Source: Bdellovibrionales bacterium
Lineage (GTDB): Bacteria > Bdellovibrionota > Bdellovibrionia > Bdellovibrionales > JAGQZY01
Assembly (NCBI GenBank): GCA_031426555.1
Contig: JANPLN010000065.1
Coordinates: 8,535-72,534, forward strand
DNA length: 64,000 nt
Direction: 5' to 3'
Position 1 is the first letter of the stretch. Every line of letters starts with the position of its first letter. The notes below the pieces were generated by a model. That model searched no databases. It worked only from the letters and a program-made list of their open reading frames with translations, and was not told the origin of the DNA. The translations under genes were made by a program, and so were the position numbers. Of this stretch, positions 3,110-45,360 are shown piece after piece.

Positions 3110-3141
3110 CAGAGATGCTCGAAGCACGAGCTTCTAACTAA
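3080..3141. repeat. perfect 30-bp tandem direct repeat duplicating the 3' end of the upstream ORF
   Basis: GAGATGCTCGAAGCACGAGCTTCTAACTAA at 3080-3109 and 3112-3141. Confidence 0.95.
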
Positions 3142-3198
3142 AAGCCTTGCTTGTAGCCTGCCATACTCCTAACTTGGGGTTTTCCTTAGGGAGTACCA

Positions 3199-12310: not shown

Positions 12311-12424
12311 GCGGGCAATATAGGTCACTTCCCAGTGACCTGATATGACGTTGTCTTCGCGTTGTAAAAGTTTTAGATGTGATTAACTTTTATCCACTCT
12401 TTAGCTGACAGTTTTGCTGGCAGT

Positions 12425-13399
12425 TTAGCTGACCTGAGCGGCTGGGTGGTGGGCGGGGATGCCTGTATTGGCCACGCCTTGCGGTAGGATGGGAACGATT
12501 TCAGTTTCCATTTTTTCCGTCACGATAAGATTTTCCAGCATCATTTGTGACAAAGCTTCTAGGTGGTTAAATTCATCGCTTTTACGAAGTTTTAATTTTT
12601 GCGGTTTGCCAGCCACGAAGTTTTTTACAAAACGTTCGAAGGCGTAAACCGGTCCAGCCACACGGTGGGAAAGGGAGCGGCCAATCATAAACAAGAAAGC
12701 ACCAAACGCCAAGGTGAAAGCTGTGTAAGTCTGAATGAAGGGAATTAAAAATTGATCGAGCAGCTTTTGGTTATTACCAATCAAGTCCACCACCATAAAG
12801 CGCAAAAAGGTATAACTAAACACGCCGGCGATGAGACCAAATCCCAAACCAATACCCATCAACGTAAAGCAGTAACGCAATTGAAACGCGGGATTTACCC
12901 AGTAGTATTTACGAATATTATTTTGTGGCCACAGCAATTCGCCATCTTTTAAAAGCGCCGTCACTAAACAAATATAACCCACCCACTGGAGAGCATCTGC
13001 AACGTTGAGCACCGGGGAGTGCCAGCCACCCACTTCGAAATAAATAAAATCGATCACATAACCTTGAATCGTGCGATCGATCACATTGCCGATAATTCCA
13101 CCCATGAGGGTCGACATTCCAACGCGCAACAAAAGGGATTTGATCGGAAGAAGATACTGAATGATCACAAACGTAAATAGTAAAAATGCTCCACCCGTAG
13201 AAAGAGAAACAATTCTTAAAATCGGAGGAAGACTAGAAAACAACCCAAGCATAGCGCCTTTATTGAAATGCAGTGCAAATCCAAGGGGGCCATATTTAAG
13301 AGTGCCAGCAAGTCCCAGGGCCCACCATTTGGTTGCTTGATCAATTGCGATCGTAAAGAACATCGGGGCGAGGACATAAAACCATTCGTGCTTTTTCAT
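12425..13399 (-). CDS. lspA: lipoprotein signal peptidase II with C-terminal 2-TM + HAMP-like extension
   Basis: DQATK, NKGAMLG, GNVIDR, VIDFI, NVAD motifs; extra ~170 aa ending SHRVAGPV...LRKSDEF. Confidence 0.85.
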   Translation of the reverse strand: MKKHEWFYVLAPMFFTIAIDQATKWWALGLAGTLKYGPLGFALHFNKGAMLGLFSSLPPILRIVSLSTGGAFLLFTFVIIQYLLPIKSLLLRVGMSTLMGGIIGNVIDRTIQGYVIDFIYFEVGGWHSPVLNVADALQWVGYICLVTALLKDGELLWPQNNIRKYYWVNPAFQLRYCFTLMGIGLGFGLIAGVFSYTFLRFMVVDLIGNNQKLLDQFLIPFIQTYTAFTLAFGAFLFMIGRSLSHRVAGPVYAFERFVKNFVAGKPQKLKLRKSDEFNHLEALSQMMLENLIVTEKMETEIVPILPQGVANTGIPAHHPAAQVS

Positions 13400-13470
13400 T
13401 CACTTAGAATAAAAGATTCAGTAAAAACCGCAAAACATAAAAAGGTCCTACTAGACAGAGCTCTAGTGCA

Positions 13471-13607
13471 TGTTTTCGATTCTAAGAAAATATGGAAAGG
13501 CATTCTTTTTAAACGCGTCCATCCTGGACTCGCTCGCAGGGCGAAACGTCCTGTTTGCGAGAGGTTTAAAAAGAATACCTTTCCACATTTTCTTAAAATC
13601 GAAAACA
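13471..13607 (+). repeat. long palindromic element copy E1 (44-bp arms, 49-nt conserved core)
   Basis: arms 13471-13514 / 13564-13607 (3 mismatches); core GCGTCCATCCTGGACTCGCTCGCAGGGCGAAACGTCCTGTTTGCGAGAG. Confidence 0.92.
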
Positions 13608-13650
13608 AGACAAAAACACCCCTGTTAACCAACCTGCGCATTCACTTTCA

Positions 13651-13808
13651 ACTTTCTCCTATTTTTTGGAATTCTTGGAGATTCGAAACAGTTCTTTTTC
13701 AAACCTCTCGCAAACACGAAGTTTCGTCCTGCGAGCGAGTCCAAGGATGGACGCGTTTGAAAAAGGACTGTTTCGAATCTCCAAGAATTCCAAAAAATAG
13801 GAGAAAGT
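13651..13808 (-). repeat. long palindromic element copy E2 (54-bp arms, core in reverse orientation)
   Basis: arms 13651-13704 / 13755-13808 (1 mismatch); reverse-complement core GCGTCCATCCTTGGACTCGCTCGCAGGACGAAACTTCGTGTTTGCGAGAG. Confidence 0.92.
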
Positions 13809-13827
13809 GCCGAGTCATTGCTCGAGG

Positions 13828-14715
13828 TTAGGCGATGTCTTGTCCAATGACGGTCATGTTGCGGCCTTGTTTTTTGGCAAGGTAAAGTGCCTGGTCCGCC
13901 ACTGCCACGATTTCGTCGGCATCGAGTCCATGCTCGGGGTAGCTGGCCACGCCTAAGCTAATGCTAAGGCGAAATTGCAGAGAGGGGATGTGGCTGACTG
14001 AGGCGCGCAGGGTTTCGGCAAAGGCGAAGGCAAAATCAGACGGAGTTTTGGGTAAAATCGCCGCGAACTCTTCGCCACCGTAGCGGGAGAGGGAGTAGTG
14101 CGGCTTCATTTCGCTGGATAGCTTTTGCGCAAGCAAAGACAGGATCTGATCTCCGCGCGGGTGGCCAAATTGATCGTTAAGAATTTTAAAATGATCCACA
14201 TCGATCATTATCAGCGAAACAGCGGTTTTTGTTTGTTTGGCTTTTTGGATTTCGATACGTAATTTTTCTTGGAAAAAGCGATGATTGGTAAGCTCGGTGA
14301 CCGGATCGGTGATGGAGAGCTCTTTAAATTTATCGCGCTCGTTCAACAGACGCAACGTGCTTTCGGCCTCGCGCATGTGCAGTCGCAATAGATCGGGCTC
14401 CCAAGGCTTTAAGATAAACTTGTGGATTAAATTGGACTCCATGGCATTTGAAATATCGGAGAGTCCCACTTCTCCAGTGAGGAGCACTCGCAAGGTTTGT
14501 GGGTGATTGTCTTTGACCCAATTTAAAATTTCAAGACCATTAATAGTTTTAAGATTGTAGTCGCAAATCACAATGGACACTTTTTGCGAAAAAGCCTTTT
14601 GCGCGTCCGAAAAATTTGTCGCCAAAGCTATGTCAAAGGACTGCCGGAGATCTCTTTGCAGAGCTTCGAGGATATGAATGTCGTCGTCGATGCACAGGAT
14701 GAGAGGTCTATTCAT
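13828..14715 (-). CDS. response-regulator diguanylate cyclase (REC + GGDEF)
   Basis: CIDDD...ICD...LTG...KPW receiver; TDPVT, DVDHFK, ND.FGH..GD, RYGGEEF; start taken at ATG 14715. Confidence 0.92.
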   Translation of the reverse strand: MNRPLILCIDDDIHILEALQRDLRQSFDIALATNFSDAQKAFSQKVSIVICDYNLKTINGLEILNWVKDNHPQTLRVLLTGEVGLSDISNAMESNLIHKFILKPWEPDLLRLHMREAESTLRLLNERDKFKELSITDPVTELTNHRFFQEKLRIEIQKAKQTKTAVSLIMIDVDHFKILNDQFGHPRGDQILSLLAQKLSSEMKPHYSLSRYGGEEFAAILPKTPSDFAFAFAETLRASVSHIPSLQFRLSISLGVASYPEHGLDADEIVAVADQALYLAKKQGRNMTVIGQDIA

Positions 14716-16276
14716 TTTTTTCGATTTCCTTCTCGATGTTAAAAACAAACTGAAATCCGCCCAAAGGCGATGGCACAAAATTTTGAATTCGCTTGTTCAC
14801 CACCGCCACATATTGGTCATACCAAAGGGGTAATACGGGCATGTCTTCAATCACTATTTTTTGAATCTGCTTGTAAAGCTGCACCCGTTGGTCGAGATTT
14901 TCGAGCTGTTGCCCTTGCTCTAAAAGCTTATCAAGCTGGGGGTTGATATAGAAGGCACGGTTCGCGCCTTTGGGAGGAACTTGTTCAGAGTGAAACGCGA
15001 GACGATACTGATCGGGATCCCAAATGCCCACAAAGCGCATTGTTGCGAGCTGAAAATTGCCCTTCGAAACGTCCTCGTAGTACGTTCCCCATTCAAAACT
15101 TTTCATGCGCACCGAAATACCGAGTTTTTCGATTTGATGAGCAAGAATACGACCGTTTTCGATGGCCATTTTTTGATTGGAGGTTTTAAGTTCGAGTTCC
15201 AATGGTTTTGGCAAATTCTTTAAAAGCTCCATGCCCTTTTGCACATCCGTGCTCGGAAGTTGAAGTGCGGCATCGTAGTACGGCGTGCTGGGAATTACAA
15301 ATGCACTGGCCGGTGTGGCGTAGCCTTCGAGCTTGTATTTGATAATTTCAGAGCGGTCGATCGCGTAGTTAATCGCCGCGCGCACGTTTTTGTTTTTAAG
15401 TAAGGGATCACGCAGGTTCAATAACATGTAAGTCACATTGGCGCCAGGCATGTCATACACGCTAAATCGGGGAGAGCTTTTAAAAACCGACATTTTTGAA
15501 AGTGGAATGTCGGTCTGTACTAAATCCACAGAACCTTTGTAAAGTTTTTGAAAGCGCGTGTTGTCGTCGCGAATCACTTTGAGTTGAAGTTTAGAAATTT
15601 TGGGTGCGCGGTAATGGTTTGCTCGTGCCTTTAATAAAAGTTCATTGTCGTTCGCAGTGACCAATTCAAAGGCTCCAGAGCCCACGATGTGTTCGTAAAA
15701 ATCTTTATCGTGGGCTTGCACAATTTTTTTAGGAAGCATTTGAACGATTGCCAAATCGAGATAAAACGTACTCTCAAAACGATCTACCGTGATGTCTACC
15801 GAGTGATTAACGCCGTCGTAAACCGCCACTACTTTCTTAATTTTTTTAAACGCCGGAGAAAACAGACAAGAGTCTTTTTGAAACTCGGCAAACGAAAATT
15901 CAATGTCTTCGGCTGTGAGGGGAGCGCCGTCGGAAAAGGTGACTCCGGGTTTTAGATTAAAGTGATAGACAAAATTTTTATAAGTCCAGGAGTCGGCAAG
16001 ATCTCCTTGAATGGTGATGGGCGAGGTGGGTGTTTCGGTGGTCACGCGCACAAGTGAGGAGAATATCAGACTGCGCACATTGCTGCCGATGGAGTCGCGT
16101 GCGATACGCGGATCCAGGGTGGGCGGTGCTGCGGGGATTCCGATGACCACGGTGTCGGGTGGCGTTTGCGAACGTTTTTTGCAATTCGTCAGAAGAATTA
16201 ACGACAGGATTGTCATTGGAATGACAAAAACATAAAAAGTGAAAATACGAAGCAGCTGACGTCCAGAAAGTATCAC
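14708..16276 (-). CDS. ABC transporter substrate-binding protein, family 5 (DppA/OppA-like)
   Basis: TLDP, GVTFSDGAPLTAEDI, VGSGAF, VRAAINYAIDR; start uncertain. Confidence 0.9.
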   Translation of the reverse strand: MILSGRQLLRIFTFYVFVIPMTILSLILLTNCKKRSQTPPDTVVIGIPAAPPTLDPRIARDSIGSNVRSLIFSSLVRVTTETPTSPITIQGDLADSWTYKNFVYHFNLKPGVTFSDGAPLTAEDIEFSFAEFQKDSCLFSPAFKKIKKVVAVYDGVNHSVDITVDRFESTFYLDLAIVQMLPKKIVQAHDKDFYEHIVGSGAFELVTANDNELLLKARANHYRAPKISKLQLKVIRDDNTRFQKLYKGSVDLVQTDIPLSKMSVFKSSPRFSVYDMPGANVTYMLLNLRDPLLKNKNVRAAINYAIDRSEIIKYKLEGYATPASAFVIPSTPYYDAALQLPSTDVQKGMELLKNLPKPLELELKTSNQKMAIENGRILAHQIEKLGISVRMKSFEWGTYYEDVSKGNFQLATMRFVGIWDPDQYRLAFHSEQVPPKGANRAFYINPQLDKLLEQGQQLENLDQRVQLYKQIQKIVIEDMPVLPLWYDQYVAVVNKRIQNFVPSPLGGFQFVFNIEKEIEKNE

Positions 16277-16336
16277 TTCGAAAGCTTAGCTAATAATTGT
16301 TGTAATGCCAAGAGGGGATCGGGCATAATTATTTGC

Positions 16337-17695
16337 ATGGGAAAATACTCAACTCTCCTTCTGGCTCTGGTTTTTCAATGGAACGCCTTGGCCGAACCAA
16401 TTGATGGAATCTTGCGACGGAGCCAAATTCCCACAAAGCACTTTGGTATTTGGATGGAGGGCGAAAAAACCGCATGGACCCATAACGCTGATGTGCTTAT
16501 GACCCCGGCATCTCTGAGTAAAATTCCAACTGCTGCAGCAGTGTTGGGCGTACTAGGTTTGGGTCACTCCTTCGAAACTCGTGTGTGGTCGTCAGAGCCA
16601 ATAACGGGTGGAGAATTTAAGGGCGATCTCTATCTTCAAGGGGGCGGCGACCCTTCCCTGGTTTCGGAAAACTACTGGGCCATTGTCAACGAGCTCAAGC
16701 GCTCCGGTATAAAATCCCTTAAAGGGCAGTTGTATGTGGATAGCTCTCTGTTTGACGAAGAGTACTTCTCGGACTCTCGCCAAAGTGTACGGGTGGATCG
16801 CGCGTACGATGCGCCAGTTGCGGCACTGTCGTTTAACTGGAATTCGGTAAACATTTTTGTTCGACCGGGTAAAAGAGGCGAAGCTGCCTCTGTTTTTGCG
16901 GATCCACAAAACGATTATATCGAATTAAAAAATCAGGTCAGAACCGGAGCGAAAACCGAATTGCGGGTAGAGCGCCGTTCGAAAAAGCAACACGACGAAG
17001 TCATCGTGAGTGGAACCATCGCTCTGGGATCTGTGGAACAAGCGATTTATAAAAGCATTAGCCATCCTGATTTTTGGGCGGGCAAAAATTTTAAAACATT
17101 TTTAAATCAACAGGGCATTGAATACAGCGGCACTGTGGAAAAAAAGGCTCCTCCGGCATCGGCGCAACTTTTAGTGACGTTTAAGAGTAAACCTTTGCGC
17201 GACATCGTTACCGACATGGCTAAGTTTTCAAACAACTACGTGGCCGAGATGCTCACCAAGGCTCTTTCGCAGCAAAAACCCGCAACTCTTAAAAAAGGCG
17301 TGGAACGAATTCATCAGTGGTTGATCGAGAACGGTTGGAAGCATAAAAATTTCGTTTTCGAAAATCCATCGGGGTTTTCCCATGATAATAAATTTCGCGC
17401 CCAGGATTTAGGACAGCTGTTAGTAGATCTTCGTTCAAAGCACGCCATCTTTCCAGAGTTTATTGTATCGTTGCCGATTGCTGGAGTGGATGGGACACTG
17501 AAAAAACGTTTGAAAGACAAAACCACAGAGGTGCGAGCCAAAACCGGCTATTTGGATGGAATTATAGGGCTTGCGGGCTACTACCAAAAAAACGGTGAGC
17601 AAAAGGCTTTTGTGTTTATGTACAACGGCCCCACTAAATACGACAGCCAAGTGCGCGATGTCTTCGACAACATCCTCCGCCACGGCAGCTTTTAG
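16337..17695 (+). CDS. dacB: D-alanyl-D-alanine carboxypeptidase/endopeptidase (PBP4, peptidase S13)
   Basis: ASLSK (SxxK), GGGDP, SNN, KTG; signal peptide. Confidence 0.92.
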   Translation: MGKYSTLLLALVFQWNALAEPIDGILRRSQIPTKHFGIWMEGEKTAWTHNADVLMTPASLSKIPTAAAVLGVLGLGHSFETRVWSSEPITGGEFKGDLYLQGGGDPSLVSENYWAIVNELKRSGIKSLKGQLYVDSSLFDEEYFSDSRQSVRVDRAYDAPVAALSFNWNSVNIFVRPGKRGEAASVFADPQNDYIELKNQVRTGAKTELRVERRSKKQHDEVIVSGTIALGSVEQAIYKSISHPDFWAGKNFKTFLNQQGIEYSGTVEKKAPPASAQLLVTFKSKPLRDIVTDMAKFSNNYVAEMLTKALSQQKPATLKKGVERIHQWLIENGWKHKNFVFENPSGFSHDNKFRAQDLGQLLVDLRSKHAIFPEFIVSLPIAGVDGTLKKRLKDKTTEVRAKTGYLDGIIGLAGYYQKNGEQKAFVFMYNGPTKYDSQVRDVFDNILRHGSF

Positions 17696-17710
17696 GTACC
17701 AAGTACCTTT
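17694..17710. terminator. short hairpin between convergent genes
   Basis: AGGTAC-caa-GTACCT followed by a short T run right after the dacB stop. Confidence 0.35.
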
Positions 17711-17732
17711 ACCGGCGGCGTAGCGTCGAGGG

Positions 17733-18230
17733 TTACTGCGTTTTAGCGTAAGCGATTTCTTTTTCGGCTTTTGTCTTAAGTTCTTCGCAGAGATCTTTTA
17801 AGGCAGCGGGACATTCCTTTTGAGCTTTAACAACAACATTGGCGAGCTGTTTTTCGGTGGCCGAAACATAACAGCCCATACTTTTAAAAAAGAAACTTTT
17901 AAACTCTTTATCAGCATCGAATAACTTTGCGAGATCAGGAAGGCGCTTCCAGAAGACGTCCAAGCTTAAGCTGATGGCACCTTCGATTCCTTGGGAGTAA
18001 GCGCCGTCCATGCAGTTGCTGTGATTTTTGTAAAAGTCGTACAGCGCCTGAAAATTTCCATTGGTATCGAGTTCAGAAATTGTCTTCTGAAATGCATTCA
18101 TGCAAACATTTTCAGTGTCGTTTGTTTTTTCCACTGGAGTCGCCACCTGCACCGGCGGCGCCACGGGTTCTTTATTAAACCAGGAGCAGGATGTAATTAA
18201 ACAAAATGAAATAGCTAGAAAAATTCTCAT
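17733..18230 (-). CDS. hypothetical lipoprotein, Cys-containing helical protein
   Basis: lipobox ITSC; GGAG SD. Confidence 0.75.
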   Translation of the reverse strand: MRIFLAISFCLITSCSWFNKEPVAPPVQVATPVEKTNDTENVCMNAFQKTISELDTNGNFQALYDFYKNHSNCMDGAYSQGIEGAISLSLDVFWKRLPDLAKLFDADKEFKSFFFKSMGCYVSATEKQLANVVVKAQKECPAALKDLCEELKTKAEKEIAYAKTQ

Positions 18231-18245
18231 TTGGACTCCTCTGAG

Positions 18246-18776
18246 CTAATTCAAATTATCCGCTTTAGCAATGTAAGGAAGATTGCGATACAGTTCCTGA
18301 TAATCAAGACCGTAGCCCACCACGAATTCGTTTTTAATTTCGAAGCCAAAATAATCCAACTGCACATCGGCTTTCATGGCATCGGGTTTGACAAGCAGGG
18401 AAACTGTTTTGAGGCTTTTTGGCTGGCGGGCTTGCAAGCAAGTTTTGAGGTACGTCATGGTAAGACCAGAATCCACGATGTCTTCCACCAACAAAACATT
18501 TTTACCTTCGAGGGGATTGGTGAGATCTAACGTCACCTTCACTTCGCCCGACGATTGCGTGTCGCCATGATAGCTGGAAACTCCAAAAAATTCGCAAATC
18601 ACGTTGGCGTCGATTTCGCGAATCAGATCGGAATAAAACATGTACGAGCCCTTCAAAATACAAATGGCCACCACATCCTCGCCTTTAAAATCCTTGGTGA
18701 TCTGTGCTCCCAATTGCTTTACCCGCTCTTGCAGCGTTTTTTCGTCGATCAATTTTGAAAGTTTTAATGGCACCAT
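18246..18776 (-). CDS. hpt: hypoxanthine phosphoribosyltransferase
   Basis: ILKGS, VLLVEDIVDSGLT PRPP motif, FVVGYGLD. Confidence 0.95.
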   Translation of the reverse strand: MVPLKLSKLIDEKTLQERVKQLGAQITKDFKGEDVVAICILKGSYMFYSDLIREIDANVICEFFGVSSYHGDTQSSGEVKVTLDLTNPLEGKNVLLVEDIVDSGLTMTYLKTCLQARQPKSLKTVSLLVKPDAMKADVQLDYFGFEIKNEFVVGYGLDYQELYRNLPYIAKADNLN

Positions 18777-18791
18777 GGTTCCCCCTGTTTA

Positions 18792-19583
18792 TTACACAAA
18801 TGAGTTGCTAATTAATTCACCGACGCCACCAGCGCCGGGGACAATATATTGTTGGTCGTTGAGGCCACGCTCGTCGGCCCAGCGCTCGCCTGGAATCGTT
18901 TTTAAAACCGATTCGCTGGAAAGTCCACGGTCTACGCGGGCAGTGTAAATTATCACGTCGGGGTGAGCCTGAGTGATTTGCCGAATGTATTCGGGCGTGA
19001 CGATTAGATGCACGGCAATCCATTTTTTTGCAGGACCTTTTACATTTTTTTTATAAAAATCCAACACGGTCGATAGCGATTGACCGGTGGCGCCCATGGG
19101 ATCTGGCAAAATGACGATGGAGTTCGTAACGTCGCCGCCGATTTTTGAACCAGCAAGGTCCGTCCCAGTGACAGTGTTTTGCGCGTTGACAATACGAGAG
19201 GCGAAAATATGATCCTGTCGCACCAAATGCGGATTCACCGTGTGGCACAAAAGATCAAAACCCACTTGGCTGGGCAACATGCCCGCGCGAGCAATATCCA
19301 CAATAACGGCCTTTTGTTTATCATCGAGAATTTCACCGGTGTACAAAGATTCAGGATGGGACGCCGTCATGCGCGTCGCCTTTTTTACCGTGATTTTTGG
19401 CCATTCGTTGTTGATCGCCTCGATAAATAAAGTGCTGTAAATAGTCGCCACTAAGCGATTGAACTCAGGTTGGAGTGTTTCGGGGGCGCAAAGTTTTGTC
19501 AGCAATGAGTTCATCGTCGGATGATGCAGAATGTGCACATTGGCTGGATAACGGTGCTCAATTTCGTAAGACTTGTACCCCAT
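18792..19583 (-). CDS. upp: uracil phosphoribosyltransferase
   Basis: IARAGM, PDPMGATGQS, LNDQQYIVPGAG. Confidence 0.85.
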   Translation of the reverse strand: MGYKSYEIEHRYPANVHILHHPTMNSLLTKLCAPETLQPEFNRLVATIYSTLFIEAINNEWPKITVKKATRMTASHPESLYTGEILDDKQKAVIVDIARAGMLPSQVGFDLLCHTVNPHLVRQDHIFASRIVNAQNTVTGTDLAGSKIGGDVTNSIVILPDPMGATGQSLSTVLDFYKKNVKGPAKKWIAVHLIVTPEYIRQITQAHPDVIIYTARVDRGLSSESVLKTIPGERWADERGLNDQQYIVPGAGGVGELISNSFV

Positions 19584-19601
19584 TTGGGATTTATAGCGTG
19601 C

Positions 19602-20558
19602 TCAATCGGGAAGTTCAACAAACATGATCAAATCAATATCACCGTCCCAAAAGCCCTCTGAATTATAGATTTTAAGGGCACGGTCAGTTTCGAAAATGGA
19701 TTTTTCCTCATCCCCAAATACTTTGTCCTTGGGAAGAAAGCCTGCGATCATGGCCACCGATTGAGAGTTGAGCGTCATTTCACTGGTGAAGAGGTTTTCG
19801 TCGTTCTCCTGAAGCTTTAGGCTTCCCCAACTTTTAACTTCGATGTGGAAGGACGTCGCATCATTCTTGAGGGGGTTTACCTGAAAATACAGGCCGATGC
19901 TTTTTGCAGACTCGCCACTTTTTTGACCTTTAAAAATACTTATCGGCAGACCATCAAGTTTATAGCGATTGGTAGATATGGATTTGAGTTCGGGACTTTT
20001 GCGTAAAACAGCCAGTCGCTTTTTTGAAACAATGCCCCCAAAACCATCCCCGTTGAAGGGACTGGCATTGGTTTCTCGCTGAATTTCGCTCAGTAAGGCT
20101 CGGGAGACCTGATAAAAGGAAATTTGCAGGGAGGATTTGGCCACTGTCGCCCCTTGCGCAGGTGGATCGTTAGCAACGCGAGCCGGGCGAGGCGCTTCCA
20201 CAGCCACTTTCTCGGTTGAGGCCGCCTCGATCGGCTGAGCCTGTGGAGATTCTATGCCAGGCTCGATAGCCGGCTTGTACGAAGACGGCGTCTGGGAGTC
20301 CTGGACATCCATTTGTTCGCTGGTTTGTTTAGTAATCGCAGCAACGACGTTGGTTCTTGGTTTTTTAGAAAGGGCGTAGTCGTACAAGACAAAAATAATA
20401 ATGCCCACAAACAAAATTCCCAAAATGGGGTTTTGATTGGATAGCAACAAAGCAACAATGGACTTTCGCGGAGGAACAAAATTTTTCATATTGACGCCGC
20501 ATTGGGCGCAATAAATATCCTCGGGCTGTTCGAAGTCGCATTTTGGACACTTTATCAT
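19602..20558 (-). CDS. zinc-ribbon + TM protein with periplasmic beta-domain
   Basis: CPKC-x10-CAQC, single TM helix, low-complexity linker. Confidence 0.75.
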   Translation of the reverse strand: MIKCPKCDFEQPEDIYCAQCGVNMKNFVPPRKSIVALLLSNQNPILGILFVGIIIFVLYDYALSKKPRTNVVAAITKQTSEQMDVQDSQTPSSYKPAIEPGIESPQAQPIEAASTEKVAVEAPRPARVANDPPAQGATVAKSSLQISFYQVSRALLSEIQRETNASPFNGDGFGGIVSKKRLAVLRKSPELKSISTNRYKLDGLPISIFKGQKSGESAKSIGLYFQVNPLKNDATSFHIEVKSWGSLKLQENDENLFTSEMTLNSQSVAMIAGFLPKDKVFGDEEKSIFETDRALKIYNSEGFWDGDIDLIMFVELPD

Positions 20559-20673
20559 GAAAAATCCTTCTCAAAACAGACTAACATAGTGTTTTGTGAT
20601 GAGCTAAAGAGAGTTGACGCTCCTCGCCTATGGTCTAACTGACTTCGACCCGTAGCGAGCGTAAAATCACCGG

Positions 20674-21570
20674 ATGTCAGAATCAAATCTCCATGTCCCG
20701 GTCATGCTCAATGAAATCATCGAACTCTTCAATGCGGGCTCTCCTGAGCCGCGCAAACTGCTGGATGGAACCTTCGGTCGCGGTGGGCATTCGTCGGCTT
20801 TGATGCAGCGATATCCCACTCTGCATGTTGTGGGCGTGGATCAGGATTTAACGGCCATCGACCACGGTCAAAAAGTGATCGAACCGCAGTTCCCCGGGCG
20901 CCTCACCATGTACCATGGAACTTTCGCCAAATTTACGGAACAGAATACCGATGAGTTTGATCTGATATTATTGGATTTAGGAGTGAGCTCGCCTCAACTG
21001 GATAACCCCGAACGGGGATTTAGTTTTTACCATAACGGTCCTTTGGATATGCGGATGAATCAAAACCAAAAAATCTCGGCTGCCACCATGATCAATGAAT
21101 GGGATGAAGAAGACCTGATTGATATTTTTAAAAATTACGGCGAGGTTCGCAGCCCTTACCGTGTGATTCGCGCCATATTGTTTGATCGACAAACCAAGCC
21201 GTTTACCACAACTCATCAGCTGGCGGGATTGATCGAGCGCATCGAGGGCTGGCAAAAAAAAGGCAAGCACCCAGCGACGCAGTATTTTTTAGGCCTTCGC
21301 CTGCGAGTGAATCAGGAATTGGAGAGTGTACAGGACAGTTTGCCTCGCATGATCAGGTCTTTGGTCCCGGGTGGAGTGCTCGTCGTTATGACCTTTCACT
21401 CCTTAGAGGATCGAATTGCGAAAAATATCTTTAAGGATCACGAAGAATTCGGGTATCGTATTAATAAGAAGGTCATAGTGGCAAGTGACGAGGAGCAAAA
21501 GCTGAATCCTCGATCGCGAAGTGCGAAGCTGCGTGGATTTTTGCGGAGGCCGGATGAAAAACATGAATGA
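20674..21570 (+). CDS. rsmH: 16S rRNA m4C1402 methyltransferase
   Basis: HVPVM, DGTFGRGGHS, DLGVSSPQLD, FHSLEDR, NPRSRSAKLR. Confidence 0.97.
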   Translation: MSESNLHVPVMLNEIIELFNAGSPEPRKLLDGTFGRGGHSSALMQRYPTLHVVGVDQDLTAIDHGQKVIEPQFPGRLTMYHGTFAKFTEQNTDEFDLILLDLGVSSPQLDNPERGFSFYHNGPLDMRMNQNQKISAATMINEWDEEDLIDIFKNYGEVRSPYRVIRAILFDRQTKPFTTTHQLAGLIERIEGWQKKGKHPATQYFLGLRLRVNQELESVQDSLPRMIRSLVPGGVLVVMTFHSLEDRIAKNIFKDHEEFGYRINKKVIVASDEEQKLNPRSRSAKLRGFLRRPDEKHE

Positions 21571-21850
21571 AAATATAAAGCCATTCTTGAGCGTATTTAT
21601 TTTGCTTTTATCTTTATTCGCCATTGTTTACGTTAAAATGGAAAACCGCCGAATGGGCTATGCTTTGCTGGAGCTTGCCGAAAAAGAAAAACGCGCCACT
21701 CAAAGACAACAATTGAGCATGGTGAGCCTGGCGCGCATGACAAGCCCCGAGCGTGTGCGAAAGATCGCGACTACTCAACTCACATTTCAAAACGCAAAAC
21801 AAGGACAAGTGATTCGGGTGGCTGGGCAAGGCACCGTCGCTGTAAAGTAA
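21554..21850 (+). CDS. ftsL: cell division protein FtsL
   Basis: position between rsmH and ftsI; TM + coiled coil + SPERV motif; start 21554 or 21563. Confidence 0.75.
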   Translation: MKNMNENIKPFLSVFILLLSLFAIVYVKMENRRMGYALLELAEKEKRATQRQQLSMVSLARMTSPERVRKIATTQLTFQNAKQGQVIRVAGQGTVAVK

Positions 21851-21857
21851 GTAAACT

Positions 21858-23774
21858 ATGAAGCATCGTTTATCCATACTGCTCATTTGGTTTTTTGCGA
21901 TCTGGTCGCTTCTGGTTTTTCGCGGTTTACAAATTCAACTGTACCCCAGTCACAATTTAGATCTCGCAAGCCAAAAGCAGTATCAACGGATTGTGAAACT
22001 CTATTCCAAACGCGGAGATATTTTTGATCGCAATGGCCAGGAACTTGCGATCTCTGTGCCAGCTTTTTCGCTTTTTGCCGATCCATTGTTAATCAAAACG
22101 CCGCGCCGGTTGGCAAAAAAAATGTCGCAAATTTTACCGCTGTCACAAAAAAACATTTACAAAAAATTGACTAAAAAGAATTCGCGCTTTGTGTGGATTC
22201 AGCGCTTGCTCGACGAAAACAGCAAAAAGAAAATCCTCGCGCTCAACGAAAAAGGTTTGGGATTTAAAGACGAGTTCAAACGAGTATATCCCAATAAAAA
22301 TTTAATGGCCCACACCATTGGGTTTGTGGGTGCCGATGGTCACGGGCTTGAGGGCATCGAGGCTCGCTACGATGCCCGCCTGAGTGCTGAGGATAAAGTT
22401 ATGAATCTTCCGAAAGATGCCCGCGGGCGATTTTTGGTGGAAGACGGTTGGCTTTTTATGCAAAATCGCGATGGTGAGGACGTGTACCTTACGATCGATG
22501 CAGACCTTCAGTACTTTACCGAGCAGGAACTTAAAAAAGCCCTGGTGCACCATAATGCCGAAGCCGCGTGGGCCATAGTGATGAGTCCGAAAACTGGCGA
22601 GATCCTCACCATGGCGTCACTTCCCGACTTTGATATCAACAATGCCGGTGGCGCAAGTAAAGAATCTCGCCGCAATCGCATGACCACTGATATCTACGAG
22701 CCCGGTAGTACCATGAAAACTATGTTCTTAGCGGCGGCGCTTAAAAATGGAATCATTCAAGGCAACTCAGTGATTGATACCTCCACGGGCCAAATCGAAA
22801 TCGACAAACGAGTGATTCGCGAATCTGATGCCCATCATACCTACGAAAAACTTTCCACCACCGAAGTCCTAGCCAATTCATCCAACGTGGGAGTTTCTAA
22901 AATCGCGCTGAAGATGAAAGATAAGCAGATTTACGAAGAGTATAAAAAGTTTGGCTTTGGCGAAAAAACGGGAATCGATATTCTGGGAGAATCCAAAGGA
23001 ATTTTTTTAACCCCTCCATGGCGCGATCATCACAAAGCCAATATTTCGTTTGGCCATGGGATCGCCGTGACAGCTTTGCAAATGGCCAACGCCTACGCCG
23101 CGATCGCCAACAAAGGCGTTTTGCAGAGGCCCATTCTTGTAAAATCGCAAAAAGAAATTCTCGACGCTAAAACAGTGCAAGAGCGCAACATGGGCCGAGT
23201 GCTCTCCGACAAAGAAGCCGGGAGAATCAAAATGATGCTCGTAGCAGCCACGGCCGAAACCGCAACGGGAAAATCGGCCCGCGTGCGAGGATTTCCGGTC
23301 GCAGGCAAAACCGGCACGGCACAAAAGGTTGATCCCAATGGTCGCGGGTACTTAAAGGGACAATACATCTCGAGCTTCATCGGCTTTTTGCCAGCGAACG
23401 ATCCAGAGTTTTTAATTTATGTGGTGGTAGATAATCCTCGCAACAATGGGTATTACGGTTCCGAAACGGCAGCTCCCATTTTTGCAAGAATTGCCCACTA
23501 CGCGATTAATAAACGCGGACTGGCGCCGGTGCAAATTGCCGAAGAGGATTTGATTAAGCCGCGCACCGAAATTCACGAGGTTCTGCTTGGTACGGAGGGT
23601 GAGGCTTTTGTTCCCGATATGAAGGGCTGGGCTCTCCGCGATGTGCTCCGATATGTGCAAAAAGAAAAAGTCGACTTAAACCTGGTGGGTCGCAAGGGGC
23701 GCGTTGTCAAAACAGCTCCCGCTGTTGGCGAAATTTGGACGGATGACAAGAAACTCAAAGTCTACCTCGAGTAG
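21858..23774 (+). CDS. ftsI: peptidoglycan transpeptidase PBP3 with C-terminal PASTA-like domain
   Basis: RGDIFDRNG, EPGSTMK, SSN, KTGTAQK. Confidence 0.93.
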   Translation: MKHRLSILLIWFFAIWSLLVFRGLQIQLYPSHNLDLASQKQYQRIVKLYSKRGDIFDRNGQELAISVPAFSLFADPLLIKTPRRLAKKMSQILPLSQKNIYKKLTKKNSRFVWIQRLLDENSKKKILALNEKGLGFKDEFKRVYPNKNLMAHTIGFVGADGHGLEGIEARYDARLSAEDKVMNLPKDARGRFLVEDGWLFMQNRDGEDVYLTIDADLQYFTEQELKKALVHHNAEAAWAIVMSPKTGEILTMASLPDFDINNAGGASKESRRNRMTTDIYEPGSTMKTMFLAAALKNGIIQGNSVIDTSTGQIEIDKRVIRESDAHHTYEKLSTTEVLANSSNVGVSKIALKMKDKQIYEEYKKFGFGEKTGIDILGESKGIFLTPPWRDHHKANISFGHGIAVTALQMANAYAAIANKGVLQRPILVKSQKEILDAKTVQERNMGRVLSDKEAGRIKMMLVAATAETATGKSARVRGFPVAGKTGTAQKVDPNGRGYLKGQYISSFIGFLPANDPEFLIYVVVDNPRNNGYYGSETAAPIFARIAHYAINKRGLAPVQIAEEDLIKPRTEIHEVLLGTEGEAFVPDMKGWALRDVLRYVQKEKVDLNLVGRKGRVVKTAPAVGEIWTDDKKLKVYLE

Positions 23775-23782
23775 GTACGGCG

Positions 23783-23951
23783 TTTTGGGATTCATTGCGT
23801 AAAAATAATCTCCCATTTTTTTAAAAGGGTTCTTTTTAAGACGCGTCCATCCCTGGACTCGCTCGCAGGACGAAACGTCCTGTTTGCGAGAGGTCTTAAA
23901 AAGAACCCTTTAAAAAAATAGGAGATTATTTTTACGCAATAAATCCCAAAA
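23783..23951 (+). repeat. long palindromic element copy E3 (~60-bp arms)
   Basis: arms 23783-23842 / 23893-23951 (2 mismatches, 1 bulge); core GCGTCCATCCCTGGACTCGCTCGCAGGACGAAACGTCCTGTTTGCGAGAG. Confidence 0.93.
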
Positions 23952-23966
23952 GTGTGCGGGTCGCAG

Positions 23967-24773
23967 CTAATGGGCTTTGATAAATTCGATGCCTTGATCG
24001 ATTGATGAATAGCTAAATAAATAAACGGCGATGTGGCCCAAGAATGCTGCTCTGTAGGTTTTTACTTCGCGATTCTTTTTTTGCAGAGCTGCGGCCATCA
24101 TATCCATTTGCTCGGGTTCGACAAGGCTGTCCCAGGAGCCGTGGTATAAAAATACGGGTGGGGAGTTTTCGCTCACTTGAAAAACTGGGGAGGCTTTTTC
24201 CCAGAGTTGTTGGTTTTCCGCGTAGGAGACGCCCAGAAATGTTTTTACAAGTGGAGAGTTGGGCCAAGCTGTAAGGTTAGCCGGCGTGCCGCCAGCAACA
24301 ACAGCTTTTACGCCAAGGGTTCCGTCGAGGCTTGCGAGCAAGGCCAAGTGGGCACCTGAGGAGTAACCCCATACGTAAAGTTTTTCGGGATCAACATTCA
24401 ACGGAGCGGCGCTATGTTTGAGCCACGAAATAGCATCGCGTACATCGTCGACAGCCTTGGGATATAAATGTTCGGGAGCCAAGCGATAGGTAACGTTCAT
24501 AACAACGAATCCCTCAGCGACCAGGTCTTTGCACAGACTTTCCATATCGCCACTGCGTTTTGCCCACGATCCGCCGTGGACCACCACGACCGCTGGACGC
24601 CCGTTGCCGTTTTTAGGAACAAACAAATCGGCCTTTAACGAGACATTCCCTACGGTTTTAAAAACAATTTCCTTTTGCACGTCGTAAGCTTGGGATGAAA
24701 ATAAAGTGGCGCAACCAAAAAAAATGCCGGCAGTAAAAATAGCTGTTACTATAAAAATTCTTCTTTTCATCAT
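23967..24773 (-). CDS. alpha/beta hydrolase (HSL/BD-FAE-like esterase), lipoprotein
   Basis: HGGSW oxyanion motif, YRLAP, GYSSG nucleophile elbow, HGSWD, GH. Confidence 0.88.
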   Translation of the reverse strand: MMKRRIFIVTAIFTAGIFFGCATLFSSQAYDVQKEIVFKTVGNVSLKADLFVPKNGNGRPAVVVVHGGSWAKRSGDMESLCKDLVAEGFVVMNVTYRLAPEHLYPKAVDDVRDAISWLKHSAAPLNVDPEKLYVWGYSSGAHLALLASLDGTLGVKAVVAGGTPANLTAWPNSPLVKTFLGVSYAENQQLWEKASPVFQVSENSPPVFLYHGSWDSLVEPEQMDMMAAALQKKNREVKTYRAAFLGHIAVYLFSYSSIDQGIEFIKAH

Positions 24774-25393
24774 GCATCGTCCTCACAGTTATCTAAAAGT
24801 GATTGTACGGCCCAGCCCACGGCATCGCTCATAGCTTCGCCGGAGTAGCCAAAATCCTCGCGGAGATCGTACCATATTTTGGCATTCACCAAACACGTCA
24901 CCAGTGCGAGTCGCTTCTGCATCTGCGACGTGACGTGCAATTTTTTTTCCGCAGCAATGCGAGCAATCATCAGTTGTGTTAATTTTTTACGAAACAAAAC
25001 ACGTGTCTCTTGCCCAAAGGGTGATAAGACATAGGCCATGGTCAATGATTCGTGTTGGTCAAAAAGTTTAAATGCGTTGATGGCAAAGCCCACAAAATGC
25101 AAGGTTTCCATTTGCTGAGTGCTGGATTGCAAAAACCCAAGCAGGTAGTTATCCATGGCATCGTGCAAAGTTTTTTTGTCTTTAAAAAAACGAAAGATAG
25201 TTCGCTGCGCAATGCCAATTTTTTTGGCCACATCCTGCAATTGGACCTCGCCGCCTCTTCTTTCCACAAGAAGTGATATAAATGCCTCGATAATCGCTTT
25301 TTGCGTTTGGGCGGATTTCTCACTGCGTGAAGTATTGTTGTATTTCCGTTTAGATACGGGTGTTTTTTTTACTTTTTTCCTGATCTGAGCCAT
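24770..25393 (-). CDS. TetR/AcrR family transcriptional regulator
   Basis: HTH 'LQDVAKKIGIAQRTIFRFFKDK'. Confidence 0.9.
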   Translation of the reverse strand: MAQIRKKVKKTPVSKRKYNNTSRSEKSAQTQKAIIEAFISLLVERRGGEVQLQDVAKKIGIAQRTIFRFFKDKKTLHDAMDNYLLGFLQSSTQQMETLHFVGFAINAFKLFDQHESLTMAYVLSPFGQETRVLFRKKLTQLMIARIAAEKKLHVTSQMQKRLALVTCLVNAKIWYDLREDFGYSGEAMSDAVGWAVQSLLDNCEDDA

Positions 25394-25431
25394 AAGTTAT
25401 TTTGCACTTCCCAATTTAAAAAATCAATGAT

Positions 25432-25456
25432 TTAATGTCATACTGTGTGACATTAA
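25432..25456. promoter_or_regulatory. probable TetR operator palindrome in the divergent promoter
   Basis: TTAATGTCA-tactgtg-TGACATTAA between tetR and the divergent operon. Confidence 0.7.
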
Positions 25457-25474
25457 TACAAAAAGGATTTAGCC

Positions 25475-26746
25475 ATGAAAATCGCAGTTGTTGGCTCGGG
25501 AATCAGTGGAATAGGCGCGGCTTGGCTCTTGTCGAAACAGCATGAAGTGCATCTTTTTGAGGCGGAATCGCGCTTGGGCGGACACGCGCACACGGTTGTT
25601 GTGAACGAAGCGCAAAATAGTATTCCCATGGATACAGGCTTTTTAGTTTACAACGAACTCACGTACCCCCATCTGACCCAGTTTTTTAAACATCTTAATG
25701 TGGAGACCATGGACTCCAGCATGTCGCTTTCCGTTCAGGTGCCGCAAAAAAACTTAGAGTGGAGCGGTGGAAACTTAAATACCATTTTTGGACAACGACG
25801 GAATCTTTTTAAACTCAGTTTTTACAAAATGCTTTTAGAGATCCTGCGCTTTGGGCGAGAAGCCGAGTCCAACCGGCAGGCAGCACTTCGTCACGCGTGG
25901 ACCCTGGGCGATATGCTACAAGCGAGAAAGTATTCTGAAGCTTTTAAATCCGACTATCTGCTGCCCATTGGAGCGGCGATCTGGTCCACGCCTGAACAAA
26001 AGATGTTGGAGTTCCCAGCGTCCACATTTTTAACTTTTTTTATCAATCATAAGCTTTTACAAGTTAACGGTCGTCCGATTTGGCGTACAGTCAAGAACGG
26101 CAGCGTGGAGTATGTTAAAAAAGCGGCCGCAGCAATTCAACACATCCATTTATCATCAGCGGTTGTAGAAGTGCGACGCGCACAAAATAAAGTTTTTTTA
26201 AAAACTTCGAAAGAGGCCTTCGAGTTTGATGCCGTTGTGCTCGCAACCCACGCGCCGATCACAGCGAAAATCCTCAAGGACCAATCGCCAGAGGAACAGA
26301 GTGTACTAAAGGCGATTTCCTACGAGGGCAATAAAGCGTTCCTCCACAACCAAGAGGAAGCCATGCCCAAGGCCAAGCGCTGCTGGTCCGCCTGGAACGT
26401 GTATGGCGAAATGAACGCGGATGCTCAGACTGCAAATCAGAAAGTATCGTTAACGTACCACTTAAACGAGTTGCAAAAGCTTCCCACGAAAACAAATTAC
26501 TTTTTAACTCTGAACCCCACAAAAAAAATAAATAATTCGCAGGGTGAAATCGAATACGCCCATCCGCAGTTTAATCAAACCGCCATTCGCGCACAACGGG
26601 CACTGCCTTCGATACAAGGTCAGGGCGGAGTGTACTTTGCAGGGGCATGGACGCGCTACGGGTTTCATGAGGACGGCTTACTGAGCGCGGTCAATGTGGC
26701 AGAGCTCCTTGGTGCTACCATTCCCTGGGCGGTGAAAAATGAATAA
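25475..26746 (+). CDS. FAD-dependent oxidoreductase (amine-oxidase family, UfaD-like)
   Basis: GSGISG Rossmann motif, RLGGHAHT, DTGFLVYN, GAWTRYGFHEDG. Confidence 0.88.
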   Translation: MKIAVVGSGISGIGAAWLLSKQHEVHLFEAESRLGGHAHTVVVNEAQNSIPMDTGFLVYNELTYPHLTQFFKHLNVETMDSSMSLSVQVPQKNLEWSGGNLNTIFGQRRNLFKLSFYKMLLEILRFGREAESNRQAALRHAWTLGDMLQARKYSEAFKSDYLLPIGAAIWSTPEQKMLEFPASTFLTFFINHKLLQVNGRPIWRTVKNGSVEYVKKAAAAIQHIHLSSAVVEVRRAQNKVFLKTSKEAFEFDAVVLATHAPITAKILKDQSPEEQSVLKAISYEGNKAFLHNQEEAMPKAKRCWSAWNVYGEMNADAQTANQKVSLTYHLNELQKLPTKTNYFLTLNPTKKINNSQGEIEYAHPQFNQTAIRAQRALPSIQGQGGVYFAGAWTRYGFHEDGLLSAVNVAELLGATIPWAVKNE

Positions 26747-27488
26747 TCTGCAATTGAGCCAAGGATTTGTCTATCACAGCCGGCGCGAAGGTGCGAAGAC
26801 AGCCTTTCGTTATCCTACGTTTTTTGCTTTTTTCAATTGCGATAACGAACAGGGATTTTTAAAAGTCTTGCGCCAAAATTTTTATGGTTTGCTGTCGTTT
26901 AAAAGCAAAGACTATTTACAACAAAAATCCGCTCCGGTGAGCGCCACCGTAAAAGATTTTTTAAAAGAAAAATGTAACTACCAGCCAGAGCAGGTTTGGC
27001 TCTACTCTATGCCACGAATGTTTGGTTATGCGTTTAACCCTGTGAGTTTTTGGTGTTGTTATAAAAATTCACGGTTAGATGCGATCCTTGTCGAGGTTCA
27101 TAATACGTTTGGAGAGCGCCACTTTTATTGGATTCACCCCGAAAAAGGCATACAGGCTACCGAGTGGTACAGATCGGAAAAGAATTTCCATGTTTCGCCA
27201 TTTTTCCCTGTGGACGGGTTTTATAAATTTCGCTTTGATTTTTTGTCCAACAGGATAAAAATCTACATTAACTATTACAATCCCGACGGATCTGTTCGCT
27301 TGGTAACTTGGGTTGATGGAGAATTAACTTCTTTAGAAAGCCATTCTTTTTTCCCTCTGTTATTTAAATATGGCTGGATCACGCCGCTGGTTGTTTTGCG
27401 TATTCATTATCAAGCTTTCAAATTATGGCTTCGTAAAAGCCGCTTTTATTCTAAACCGCTACCACCTCAAAAGGAGATTACAAAATGA
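26739..27488 (+). CDS. DUF1365 family protein (UfaO-like)
   Basis: PRMFGYAFNPVSFW, EVHNTFGERH, KNFHVSPFF, IHYQAFKLW. Confidence 0.88.
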   Translation: MNNLQLSQGFVYHSRREGAKTAFRYPTFFAFFNCDNEQGFLKVLRQNFYGLLSFKSKDYLQQKSAPVSATVKDFLKEKCNYQPEQVWLYSMPRMFGYAFNPVSFWCCYKNSRLDAILVEVHNTFGERHFYWIHPEKGIQATEWYRSEKNFHVSPFFPVDGFYKFRFDFLSNRIKIYINYYNPDGSVRLVTWVDGELTSLESHSFFPLLFKYGWITPLVVLRIHYQAFKLWLRKSRFYSKPLPPQKEITK

Positions 27489-28660
27489 AGACACCGTCAT
27501 TCCGCGGACAAATGTTTCTGAAGGTTTTAAAAAATGCCAAACACGGAACCCTCGAATTGATTCTACCTGACGGCACCCGCGATCGATACGGCGAGGGAGC
27601 CCCACAGATTCAGGTGCATTTAAAAAACTGGAAAGCGCTGGATTTGCTTTTTAGCAAAGGCGATATTGGTTTAGCCGAGGCCATTGTGGACGACCTCATG
27701 GTGGTTGATGATGTGGCGGCGCTTGTTGAGTGGGCGTGTCGCAATGATCAGGATCTTGCCAAGGTGATTTATGGCTCGTGGTATGGAACCATCGCTTCAA
27801 AGATTCATCACTTTCTCAATCGCAACAACCGCAAAGGGGCGCAAAAAAATATCATGGCCCATTACGACCTCGGCAACGAATTTTATAGTTTGTGGCTCGA
27901 TGAATCCATGACTTACTCGTCGGCGATATTTAAAACCCCAACACAGAGTTTAGCCGATGCACAAAACCAAAAGTACGATCACATTATCGATTCCTTAGAA
28001 ATAAAATCTGGAGACCATCTCCTCGAAATCGGCTGTGGCTGGGGCGGTTTTTTTAGTCGCGCCATCGAACGCACGGGCTGCAAGGTGACAGCGGTTGCAA
28101 ATTCGCCTGAGCAAATTCGCTACAATCAGGCAAAAATCGAAAAACAAAACATGAAAGATCATGTGCAAGTTTTGCAGCAGGATTATCGCGACATATCGGG
28201 GCGCTTTGACAAAGTGATCTCCATCGAAATGATCGAAGCGGTGGGAGAACAATATTGGAATGCGTTTTTCTCAAAAATGCGAGCGTCGTTGAAAGAAAAA
28301 GGCAAAGCCGCCATTCAGGGCATTACCATTCGCGAAGATCTGTTTTACTCCTACAAAAAAGGAACGGACTTTATTCAACAATCGGTATTTCCAGGAGGTA
28401 TGCTGTTGACGGACAAAGCTGTATCTCAGGCCAGTGAGCAAAATGGCTTGGTGGTTTACGGCTCCCATGAGTTCGGTTTGGATTACGCGCGAACCCTCAA
28501 GCTGTGGCGGGAGAATTTTAACAAAGCGCTCCCGCATGTTCGCGCCATGGGCTTTGACGATCGCTTTATTCGCCTGTGGAATTTGTACTTGGCATATTGC
28601 GAAGGCGCCTTTCGCGCGCAACGAATTAGCGTCAGCCAATACTGGCTCGTCCCCGTTTAA
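27485..28660 (+). CDS. cfa: cyclopropane-fatty-acyl-phospholipid synthase family SAM methyltransferase
   Basis: HYDLGNEFY, MTYSSA, LEIGCGWGG, SIEMIEAVG, YLAYCE. Confidence 0.9.
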   Translation: MKTPSFRGQMFLKVLKNAKHGTLELILPDGTRDRYGEGAPQIQVHLKNWKALDLLFSKGDIGLAEAIVDDLMVVDDVAALVEWACRNDQDLAKVIYGSWYGTIASKIHHFLNRNNRKGAQKNIMAHYDLGNEFYSLWLDESMTYSSAIFKTPTQSLADAQNQKYDHIIDSLEIKSGDHLLEIGCGWGGFFSRAIERTGCKVTAVANSPEQIRYNQAKIEKQNMKDHVQVLQQDYRDISGRFDKVISIEMIEAVGEQYWNAFFSKMRASLKEKGKAAIQGITIREDLFYSYKKGTDFIQQSVFPGGMLLTDKAVSQASEQNGLVVYGSHEFGLDYARTLKLWRENFNKALPHVRAMGFDDRFIRLWNLYLAYCEGAFRAQRISVSQYWLVPV

Positions 28661-28692
28661 TTGCCGACACTGTATTAGATAAAGTACGGACA

Positions 28693-28864
28693 CACTTTTG
28701 GGACTCATTGCATAAAAATAATCGCCCATTTTTTAAAGGGTTCTTTTTAAGACGCGTCCATCCCTGGACTCGCTCGCAGGACGAAACATTCTGTTTGCGA
28801 GAGGTCTTAAAAAGAACCCTTTAAAAAATGGGCGATTATTTTTATGCAATGAGTCCCAAAAGTG
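28693..28864 (+). repeat. long palindromic element copy E4 (61-bp perfect arms)
   Basis: arms 28693-28753 / 28804-28864 perfectly complementary; core GCGTCCATCCCTGGACTCGCTCGCAGGACGAAACATTCTGTTTGCGAGAG. Confidence 0.95.
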
Positions 28865-29080
28865 GAAGGCGCCTTGTCCCGTGTCGTACTTTGTTTTTCC
28901 TCGGAAATAGCTCGGCAACGTGCCAAAAAATCTCTATTAAATAATGACTTATTATTTAATCTAGGAGTTTAAGTGGGCTACCGGAATTCTTTCTGGGAAC
29001 GTCCAGTGTAGTATGCCTGTGCAATTTAAACTGCGCCCCTCCGGTTAGACAGTGCTCCAAATAGTTTTTGTACAGTGAAA

Positions 29081-45311: not shown

Positions 45312-45360
45312 CCAGGTCCTTTTTGAACCATAACCTGGCACCGGATCCGAGGAGAACCAA

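Follow-up and report, generated by a model that had tools for sequence, protein, structure and literature searches.

Long hairpin repeats of Bdellovibrio-like bacteria with a probable TwoAYGGAY-like head, likely self-matching arms and, in young copies, RAYT-linked ends

How does a bacterial genome come to hold long hairpins that share a conserved head and differ in arms that nevertheless pair with each other? The question is raised by a stretch of 64,000 nucleotides from a Bdellovibrionales bacterium (assembly GCA_031426555.1, contig JANPLN010000065.1, positions 8,535 to 72,534 of the forward strand), called here the window, in which position 1 is the first letter. It carries four such elements, E1 to E4, with heads of 49-50 nt, all of them intergenic and lying among housekeeping genes. 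The account that we consider probable is a palindromic repeat in three layers: a head resembling the Rfam motif TwoAYGGAY, arms matched by copying, and young copies moved as the cargo of REPINs, that is, inverted pairs of repetitive extragenic palindromic (REP) ends around a spacer (PMC3116915), by a REP-associated tyrosine transposase (RAYT). The genome carrying the window is designated G000 and its five congeners G001-G005, while order-wide searches cover 150 genomes of Bdellovibrionales. The elements are as follows:

13471..13607, minus strand: E1, a 44-bp stem plus head; on the left side of a doublet; REP-like outer end lacking
13515..13563, minus strand: head of E1; GGA-loop strand minus, GGA in both loops
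13651..13808, plus strand: E2, a 54-bp stem plus head; on the right side of the doublet; REP-like outer end likewise lacking
13705..13754, plus strand: head of E2; GGA-loop strand plus, 5' loop a CGA variant, 3' loop AAGGAT
23773..23956, minus strand: E3, including worn REP-like outer ends
23843..23892, minus strand: head of E3; GGA in both loops
28683..28890, minus strand: E4, a REPIN-like unit with a near-intact left REP-like end (28683-28705), a 61-bp perfect stem, the head and a worn right end
28754..28803, minus strand: head of E4; 5' loop mutated (AGAAT), 3' loop AGGGAT

All four hairpins are found where the first-pass annotation of this DNA had placed them, with stems of 44, 54-67, 54 and 61 bp that are 89-100% complementary. 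The arms of E1 (13471-13514 and 13564-13607) are 44 nt long and 93% complementary. Those of E2 extend to 67 nt (90%), the inner 54 nt corresponding to the element as first read at 13651-13808. E3 has arms of 54 nt (89%), and its left end overlaps the stop codon of a PBP gene (21858-23774). The 61-nt arms of E4 are 100% complementary, and its fold has a z-score of -17, with none of 200 shuffles folding equally well. E1 and E2 form a doublet whose GGA strands are directed away from each other, as they are in all six doublets of G000. Contigs built from a public run by a second assembler show no difference over window positions 12000-13680 and 13663-13796; since the run probably comes from the source sample, this agreement checks the assembly only.

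The elements belong to a real repeat family scattered through Bdellovibrio-like bacteria. A BLAST search with the core gives 21 matches in G000, so that further copies do exist genome-wide. A covariance model built from 45 heads, whose copy counts are lower bounds, hits 24 of the 34 G000 candidates scored, 8-24 loci in each of the five congeners, and 19 of the 150 genomes of the order, in 5 families. Its distant hits keep the head design, each with its own long matched arms, and stem lengths across the family are 40-75 bp. A degenerate head pattern run over the genome collection catches 34 loci (31 in Bdellovibrionales, 2 in Lachnospiraceae and 1 in Wenzhouxiangellaceae), and a looser one catches 119 metagenome and 3 viral loci, 11 of them with arms of at least 12 bp. 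Scanning G000 for long inverted repeats yields 67, and 43 of these bear one of three head types: 31 have the head in question (A) or its variants, 9 have type B and 3 have type C (E1 is left out of this count). Heads B (33-41 nt) and C (88-91 nt) sit on the same kind of long stem, for example at C2:85131, C8:18321, C30:26219 and C57:58420, among others. Head B may resemble the Rickettsia palindromic elements. A literature search found no description of this repeat in Bdellovibrionota, although the supplement of a 2026 preprint and the 2010 supplementary text on TwoAYGGAY may list such genomes.

Presence and absence between relatives, also anticipated by the first-pass annotation, is confirmed by filled and empty orthologous sites. 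The E1 site is occupied in G002 (with decayed arms) and in G003 (partly deleted), holds the remnant of another head in G001, and has no element in G004 or G005. Orthologues of E2 are present in G001 and G002, with mirrored changes in their arms. E3 has an orthologue in G001, is half deleted in G003, and is replaced by a different REP hairpin in G002. At the E4 site, G002 has the same ends around a different cargo (another REP), and the G003 element is half deleted. Could such hairpins be ordinary bidirectional terminators, or assembly artefacts? Where both neighbouring genes are called (72 heads), 34 heads lie between converging genes and 5 between diverging ones, and many copies are at contig ends. 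However, terminators and artefacts do not predict a conserved, branched 50-nt head across several genomes and assemblies, stems of 40-75 bp, or covariation in the head; as a full account this explanation is largely refuted, and we consider it highly improbable.

The head itself folds differently from what was first proposed. The second hairpin had been drawn as GGACG-AAA-CGTCC, which pairs in 47.3% of the 45 distinct heads, whereas AAAC(A/G)-TCC-TGTTT is paired in 98.7% of the same heads, with double-sided changes at three of its five pairs. The helices of the head are 90.7-99.6% paired over these heads, again with double-sided changes. When the strand opposite to the first reading is considered, both hairpins carry the same kind of loop, CA(N)GGAYG, on a basal stem. 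The strand was scored on 76 heads: 27 from G000, 13 each from G001 and G003, and 23 from G002, G004, G005 and other genera. Isolated arm mismatches on the GGA strand comprise 34 G.T against 5 A.C (binomial p 2e-6, the orthologues not being independent), which indicates that the GGA strand, and not the one first read, is favoured when folded. GGA is found in 64 of 76 3' loops and 30 of 52 5' loops, in both loops of 28 of 52 heads, and as exact AYGGAY in 24 of 76 3' loops. Head conservation and strand bias point to selection on one folded strand. The bias does not separate folded RNA from folded single-stranded DNA.

Read on this strand, the head no longer lacks a named relative, as it had seemed to do at first. 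Rfam at gathering thresholds gives no match in the window; in E-value mode, 14 small G000 loci include five matches to TwoAYGGAY (RF01731), at 27.8-40.5 bits and all on the GGA strand. In G001, the orthologue of E3 scores 32.4 bits and one copy with head C 40.2 bits. Among the loci that the head-derived pattern brought up, one from Lachnospiraceae reaches 108 bits. Seed rows of the 2010 TwoAYGGAY alignment have the same loop variants (AGGAY and ACGAY are also present), a 3' GCGU, and long variable stems (PMC2864571). The recent preprint describes swings in copy number, divergent orientation in 68% of Pseudomonas doublets, and adjacency to REP arrays; it terms the expansion mobile-element-like, and its main text mentions neither "RAYT" nor "Bdellovibrio" (10.64898/2026.09.22.753630). 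TwoAYGGAY as described and the present element both combine two hairpins with GGA-type loops and a long, poorly conserved basal stem, and share the loop variants, the 3' GCGU, multiple copies, divergent doublets and a position near REP elements. The present one differs in its much shorter hairpins (a head of about 50 nt), its near-perfect stems of 40-75 bp, its nesting within inverted ends like those that flank a RAYT gene instead of beside REP arrays, and its occurrence in a phylum other than those named in the text of the TwoAYGGAY papers. With a best score of 40.5 bits in G000, below the gathering cut-off (43 bits), the element cannot formally be counted as a member. The head is likely a compact TwoAYGGAY-like element related to RF01731. 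Rfam Gut-1 was rejected as an identity, having no match to the elements, and the matches of the long stems to miRNA models were set aside as generic long-stem matches.

The second layer, the arms, can be followed at orthologous sites. Thirteen comparisons of G000 with G001 or G003 at nine sites (two G002 pairs are excluded) cover 567 columns, of which 446 are unchanged, 96 have changed in mirrored fashion in both arms, and 25 have changed without a mirror. The mirrored differences comprise 42 transitions, 51 transversions and 3 indels. Per arm column, mirrored change amounts to 15% (G001) and 19% (G003); for the same two genomes, divergence at fourfold sites is 32% and 39%, and 354 nt of ordinary intergenic DNA have diverged by 4.5% and 14%. 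The heads at orthologous sites differ by about 6%. At two sites the head is inverted between the same arms. At another, the far arm in G000 and G001 carries a mirrored copy of about 20 nt from a gene end that G004 and G005 also have, there with no element beside it; at C57, the second site compared for arm extension, the neighbouring genes differ in the relatives. Capture of arms from elsewhere in the genome was rejected: 36 of 44 arms match nothing, 7 match mainly other REP-ended copies, and 1 has a single 17-nt match.

Template switching is described as homogenizing the arms of quasi-palindromes and inverting their spacers (PMC5941160, PMC8604942). Mirrored arm change, flipped or swapped heads and the copied gene end fit such switching from arm to arm, which likely keeps the stems matched. 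During replication, one arm would serve as template for the other, and the same reaction would also produce head inversion and arm extension. These are the three outcomes described for quasi-palindromes, where the inverted repeats are short and the spacers have a few bases; here the arms are 40-75 bp long and the spacer is a structured 50 nt.

An RNA-based explanation must be weighed at this point. The element could be a module with two binding sites for CsrA, either a sponge or part of 3' untranslated regions, with a stem selected for pairing only and mobility incidental. The head loops do match the design of CsrA sites, a role as CsrA sponge has been suggested for TwoAYGGAY (PMC4333381), and the CsrA of Bdellovibrio shows activity when tested heterologously (PMC13443453). 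In G000, csrA adjoins fliW. The G.U bias on the GGA strand and the conserved, covarying head fit as well. Yet GGA occupies both loops in only 28 of 52 heads, of the 150 genomes of the order 139 have csrA and 19 have heads, and G004 (99% complete) has 16 heads while no csrA was found in it. Where the neighbouring genes are in tandem, the GGA strand is antisense 21 times and sense 12 times (by automatic ORF calls, with orthologues not independent). Most head sites of G004 and G005 are empty in G000 (the G004 locus L057 is excluded from empty-site counts). No G.U intermediate is available to mirrored transversions and indels, and we infer that selection on an RNA would hardly produce them, at the rate seen here, through paired point mutations. 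The CsrA module seems unlikely. A strong preference in orientation to the gene upstream, suggested by a tandem-case count of 11 to 2 with E1 left out, was also considered; pooling the data (21 against 12) did not bear it out.

The third layer concerns mobility. In G001, inverted copies of GGTACGGACACACTTTTTGGGACT enclose a RAYT-type gene for a protein of 197 aa (L096:1276-1869, minus strand), and G003 has an 88% identical gene with a GGTACGGACACACTTTTTGGGACT-type end upstream (the left end is at a contig edge). The gene has HYH and YIYRNP motifs, matches Pfam Y1_Tnp above cut-off, and scores 73.5 bits on NCBIfam REP_Tyr_transpos, below the cut-off of 80. Its left neighbours differ between the two loci (L096 in G001 and L095 in G003) and both sites lack the gene in G000 (C12:1192-1309 and C42:51639), which suggests that the gene itself moved. 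The RAYT-linked outer end reads GGTACGGACACAC and starts with GGTAC; the GT(A/G)G tag of canonical REPs, located at the foot of their short palindrome, is not seen. It opens E4, is worn in E3, and is present on 10 of 27 heads scored in G000, 5 of 13 in G001 and 9 of 13 in G003. The two-end REPIN architecture is present in E4, worn in E3, and missing from E1 and E2. Such ends enclose heads A, B or C, other REPs, or plain hairpins: at one site, head C (G000), inverted head C (G001) and head A (G003) lie inside the same ends, and a site filled in G003 has only a short hairpin in G000. The RAYT would likely move the whole hairpin of young copies as REPIN cargo. A search of G000 finds no close copy of the G001 gene (best 36-38% identity), so its copies are probably stranded.

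The REPIN/RAYT logic invoked by the first-pass annotation is supported in part, by a RAYT-type gene flanked, in G001 and G003, by the outer end of E3 and E4. Two related claims found no support: conserved ends were thought to be lacking, while the young copies E3 and E4 have REP-like ones, and the fixed head was taken as the RAYT signal, while the head model finds no head in 36 Y1-transposase loci. The arms had also been called free in sequence. They do change while remaining paired, but E3, E4 and 10 of 27 G000 heads share the conserved outer end. Compared with REPIN/RAYT systems as described (PMC3116915; PMC6006769), the same inverted ends surround a variable spacer in one hairpin, a single-copy HUH/Y1 gene is flanked by those ends, and the units are intergenic, mostly behind stop codons. 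What differs is that the spacer is occupied by another element, conserved in its own right, that the end carries GGTAC instead of the GT(A/G)G tag, that most heads lack such ends, and that the cognate gene is missing from G000. TIRtrons and TIRYTs likewise have RAYT-like genes within inverted repeats that are unrelated to GTAG REPs and are dispersed; the text available on them describes no structured cargo or TwoAYGGAY link, and Bdellovibrio is absent from the main text (PMC3733652).

Other candidate movers were considered. G000 has 12 Y1-transposase matches, none of them flanked by these elements, and its two RAYT-like genes are flanked by other repeats. The short (about 160 aa) multi-copy Y1-transposase-like genes, 9-10 in G000, were considered as movers by their flanks only. 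They have a conserved motif about 110 nt upstream, are numerous also in G001, G003 and G005, and lie in G000 at C25:58512, C25:12468, C20:29762 and C66:53991, and on C72, C7, C9 and C69. An IS1182-type miniature inverted-repeat transposable element was rejected: there are no conserved outer ends besides the RAYT ends, PF05598 is found in one of five genomes and PF13751 in none of five, neither is in G000, and the one PF05598 match has no matching ends beside it. At least four RAYT/REP pairs are present in the genus. A hairpin module of 50-60 nt is inserted in the REP ends of two RAYT families (G000 C37:15380-15440, C19 and C64:75150-75230) and is absent from the G001 orthologue L114. In two heads a related module interrupts the GGA loop and is bordered by a repeated GGA on either side (L355 in G005 and L366 in G004).

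Several observations weigh against the three-layer account. For the head, the TwoAYGGAY cut-off of 43 bits is reached by no copy in five genomes (best 40.3 in the genus) or in the 150 genomes of the order (best 42.3), E1 and E2 have no TwoAYGGAY match at E<=10, and the head covariance model misses both Lachnospiraceae loci; since long stems match many unrelated miRNA models, part of the Rfam score is generic. For the arms, the element at C44:37424 shows no mirrored change, and E1 compared with its decayed G002 orthologue has 1 mirrored against 24 unmirrored differences. Some "mirrored" differences may be replacement of a whole element or misalignment in T tracts, with G000 arms being reused across comparisons, and head flips or deletions in short-read assemblies can be artefacts. 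Arm copying alone does not predict the strand-specific G.U bias. For mobility, filled and empty orthologous sites are seen between genomes and movement is not seen directly (of the reads, contigs only). The end motif matches 31 times in G002, where no close RAYT was found. REP-like ends are absent from 17 of 27 G000 heads and from all 23 heads in G002, G004, G005 and other genera, so that this RAYT is insufficient to account for the entire family. We infer that the head is older than its present RAYT partnership.

This leaves room for a head that moves on its own. As an independent unit, the head and inner stem would be recognized as single-stranded DNA by a hypothetical enzyme, land in hairpins such as REPIN centres and terminators, and rebuild arms from flanking DNA, the REPIN being a target and not a vehicle. 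Heads A, B and C replace each other, or other REPs, at the centre of the same REPIN site, one arm contains the copied end of a host gene, and bare heads, those lacking REP-like ends, form the majority and are patchily distributed, G000 having no head at 8 of the 10 G005 sites that are syntenic. Against this, no candidate enzyme emerged, as the 36 Y1 loci contain no head, neither PF05598 nor PF13751 was found in G000, G001, G003 or G004, arms match nothing else in the genome except other REP-ended copies, and no clean before/after pair was found for a bare head. We consider it quite improbable as an alternative; for old copies, it can hold together with the three-layer account. A broader version, tentative yet possible, is that TwoAYGGAY-type heads are portable single-strand modules instead of RNA genes. 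They would land in hairpins or be captured by them, rebuild and lengthen their stems by fold-back copying of adjacent DNA, be exchanged from site to site, and hitch-hike on any RAYT-REPIN system around them. If true, they would be nested parasites of REPINs, and the changing copy numbers of an orphan motif seen across phyla would be accounted for.

Since it was catalogued in 2010, TwoAYGGAY has had no function assigned to it, and the 2026 preprint leaves the route of its multiplication open in the text available. In the three-layer account, a compact relative is bounded by ends found around a specific transposase gene too, so that an enzyme can be named and a substrate defined. Orthologous sites further indicate that long bacterial stems can owe perfect covariation to DNA copying, which calls for caution in RNA motif discovery, as such a stem is poor evidence of RNA. 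The repeat family is real and likely a compact, sub-threshold TwoAYGGAY relative, whose young copies probably ride RAYT-linked REPINs and whose stems are likely self-correcting.

Other features of the window and its relatives were noted. E3 and E4 adjoin sites of gene gain and loss: a gene beside E4 (29081-30367), with a weak match to the erythromycin-esterase family, is missing there in G002 and G003 and replaced in G001, while G001 has an extra gene directly after E3. The half-deleted elements at the G003 sites of E3 and E4 (L022) are broken at the GTAC of the outer end, leaving a short perfect palindrome centred on GTAC, and the half-deleted form of E3 is also present in a contig of another sequencing run (X2). 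Two further REP types that are associated with RAYTs in this genus have one copy each in the window, at 17695-17720 and 45300-45345. The region 7922-12328 encodes a 1468-aa protein in which only a ResIII/helicase core is assigned, about 850 C-terminal residues having no Pfam match. Finally, a 32-nt direct tandem duplication is found at the end of an open reading frame at 3080-3143.

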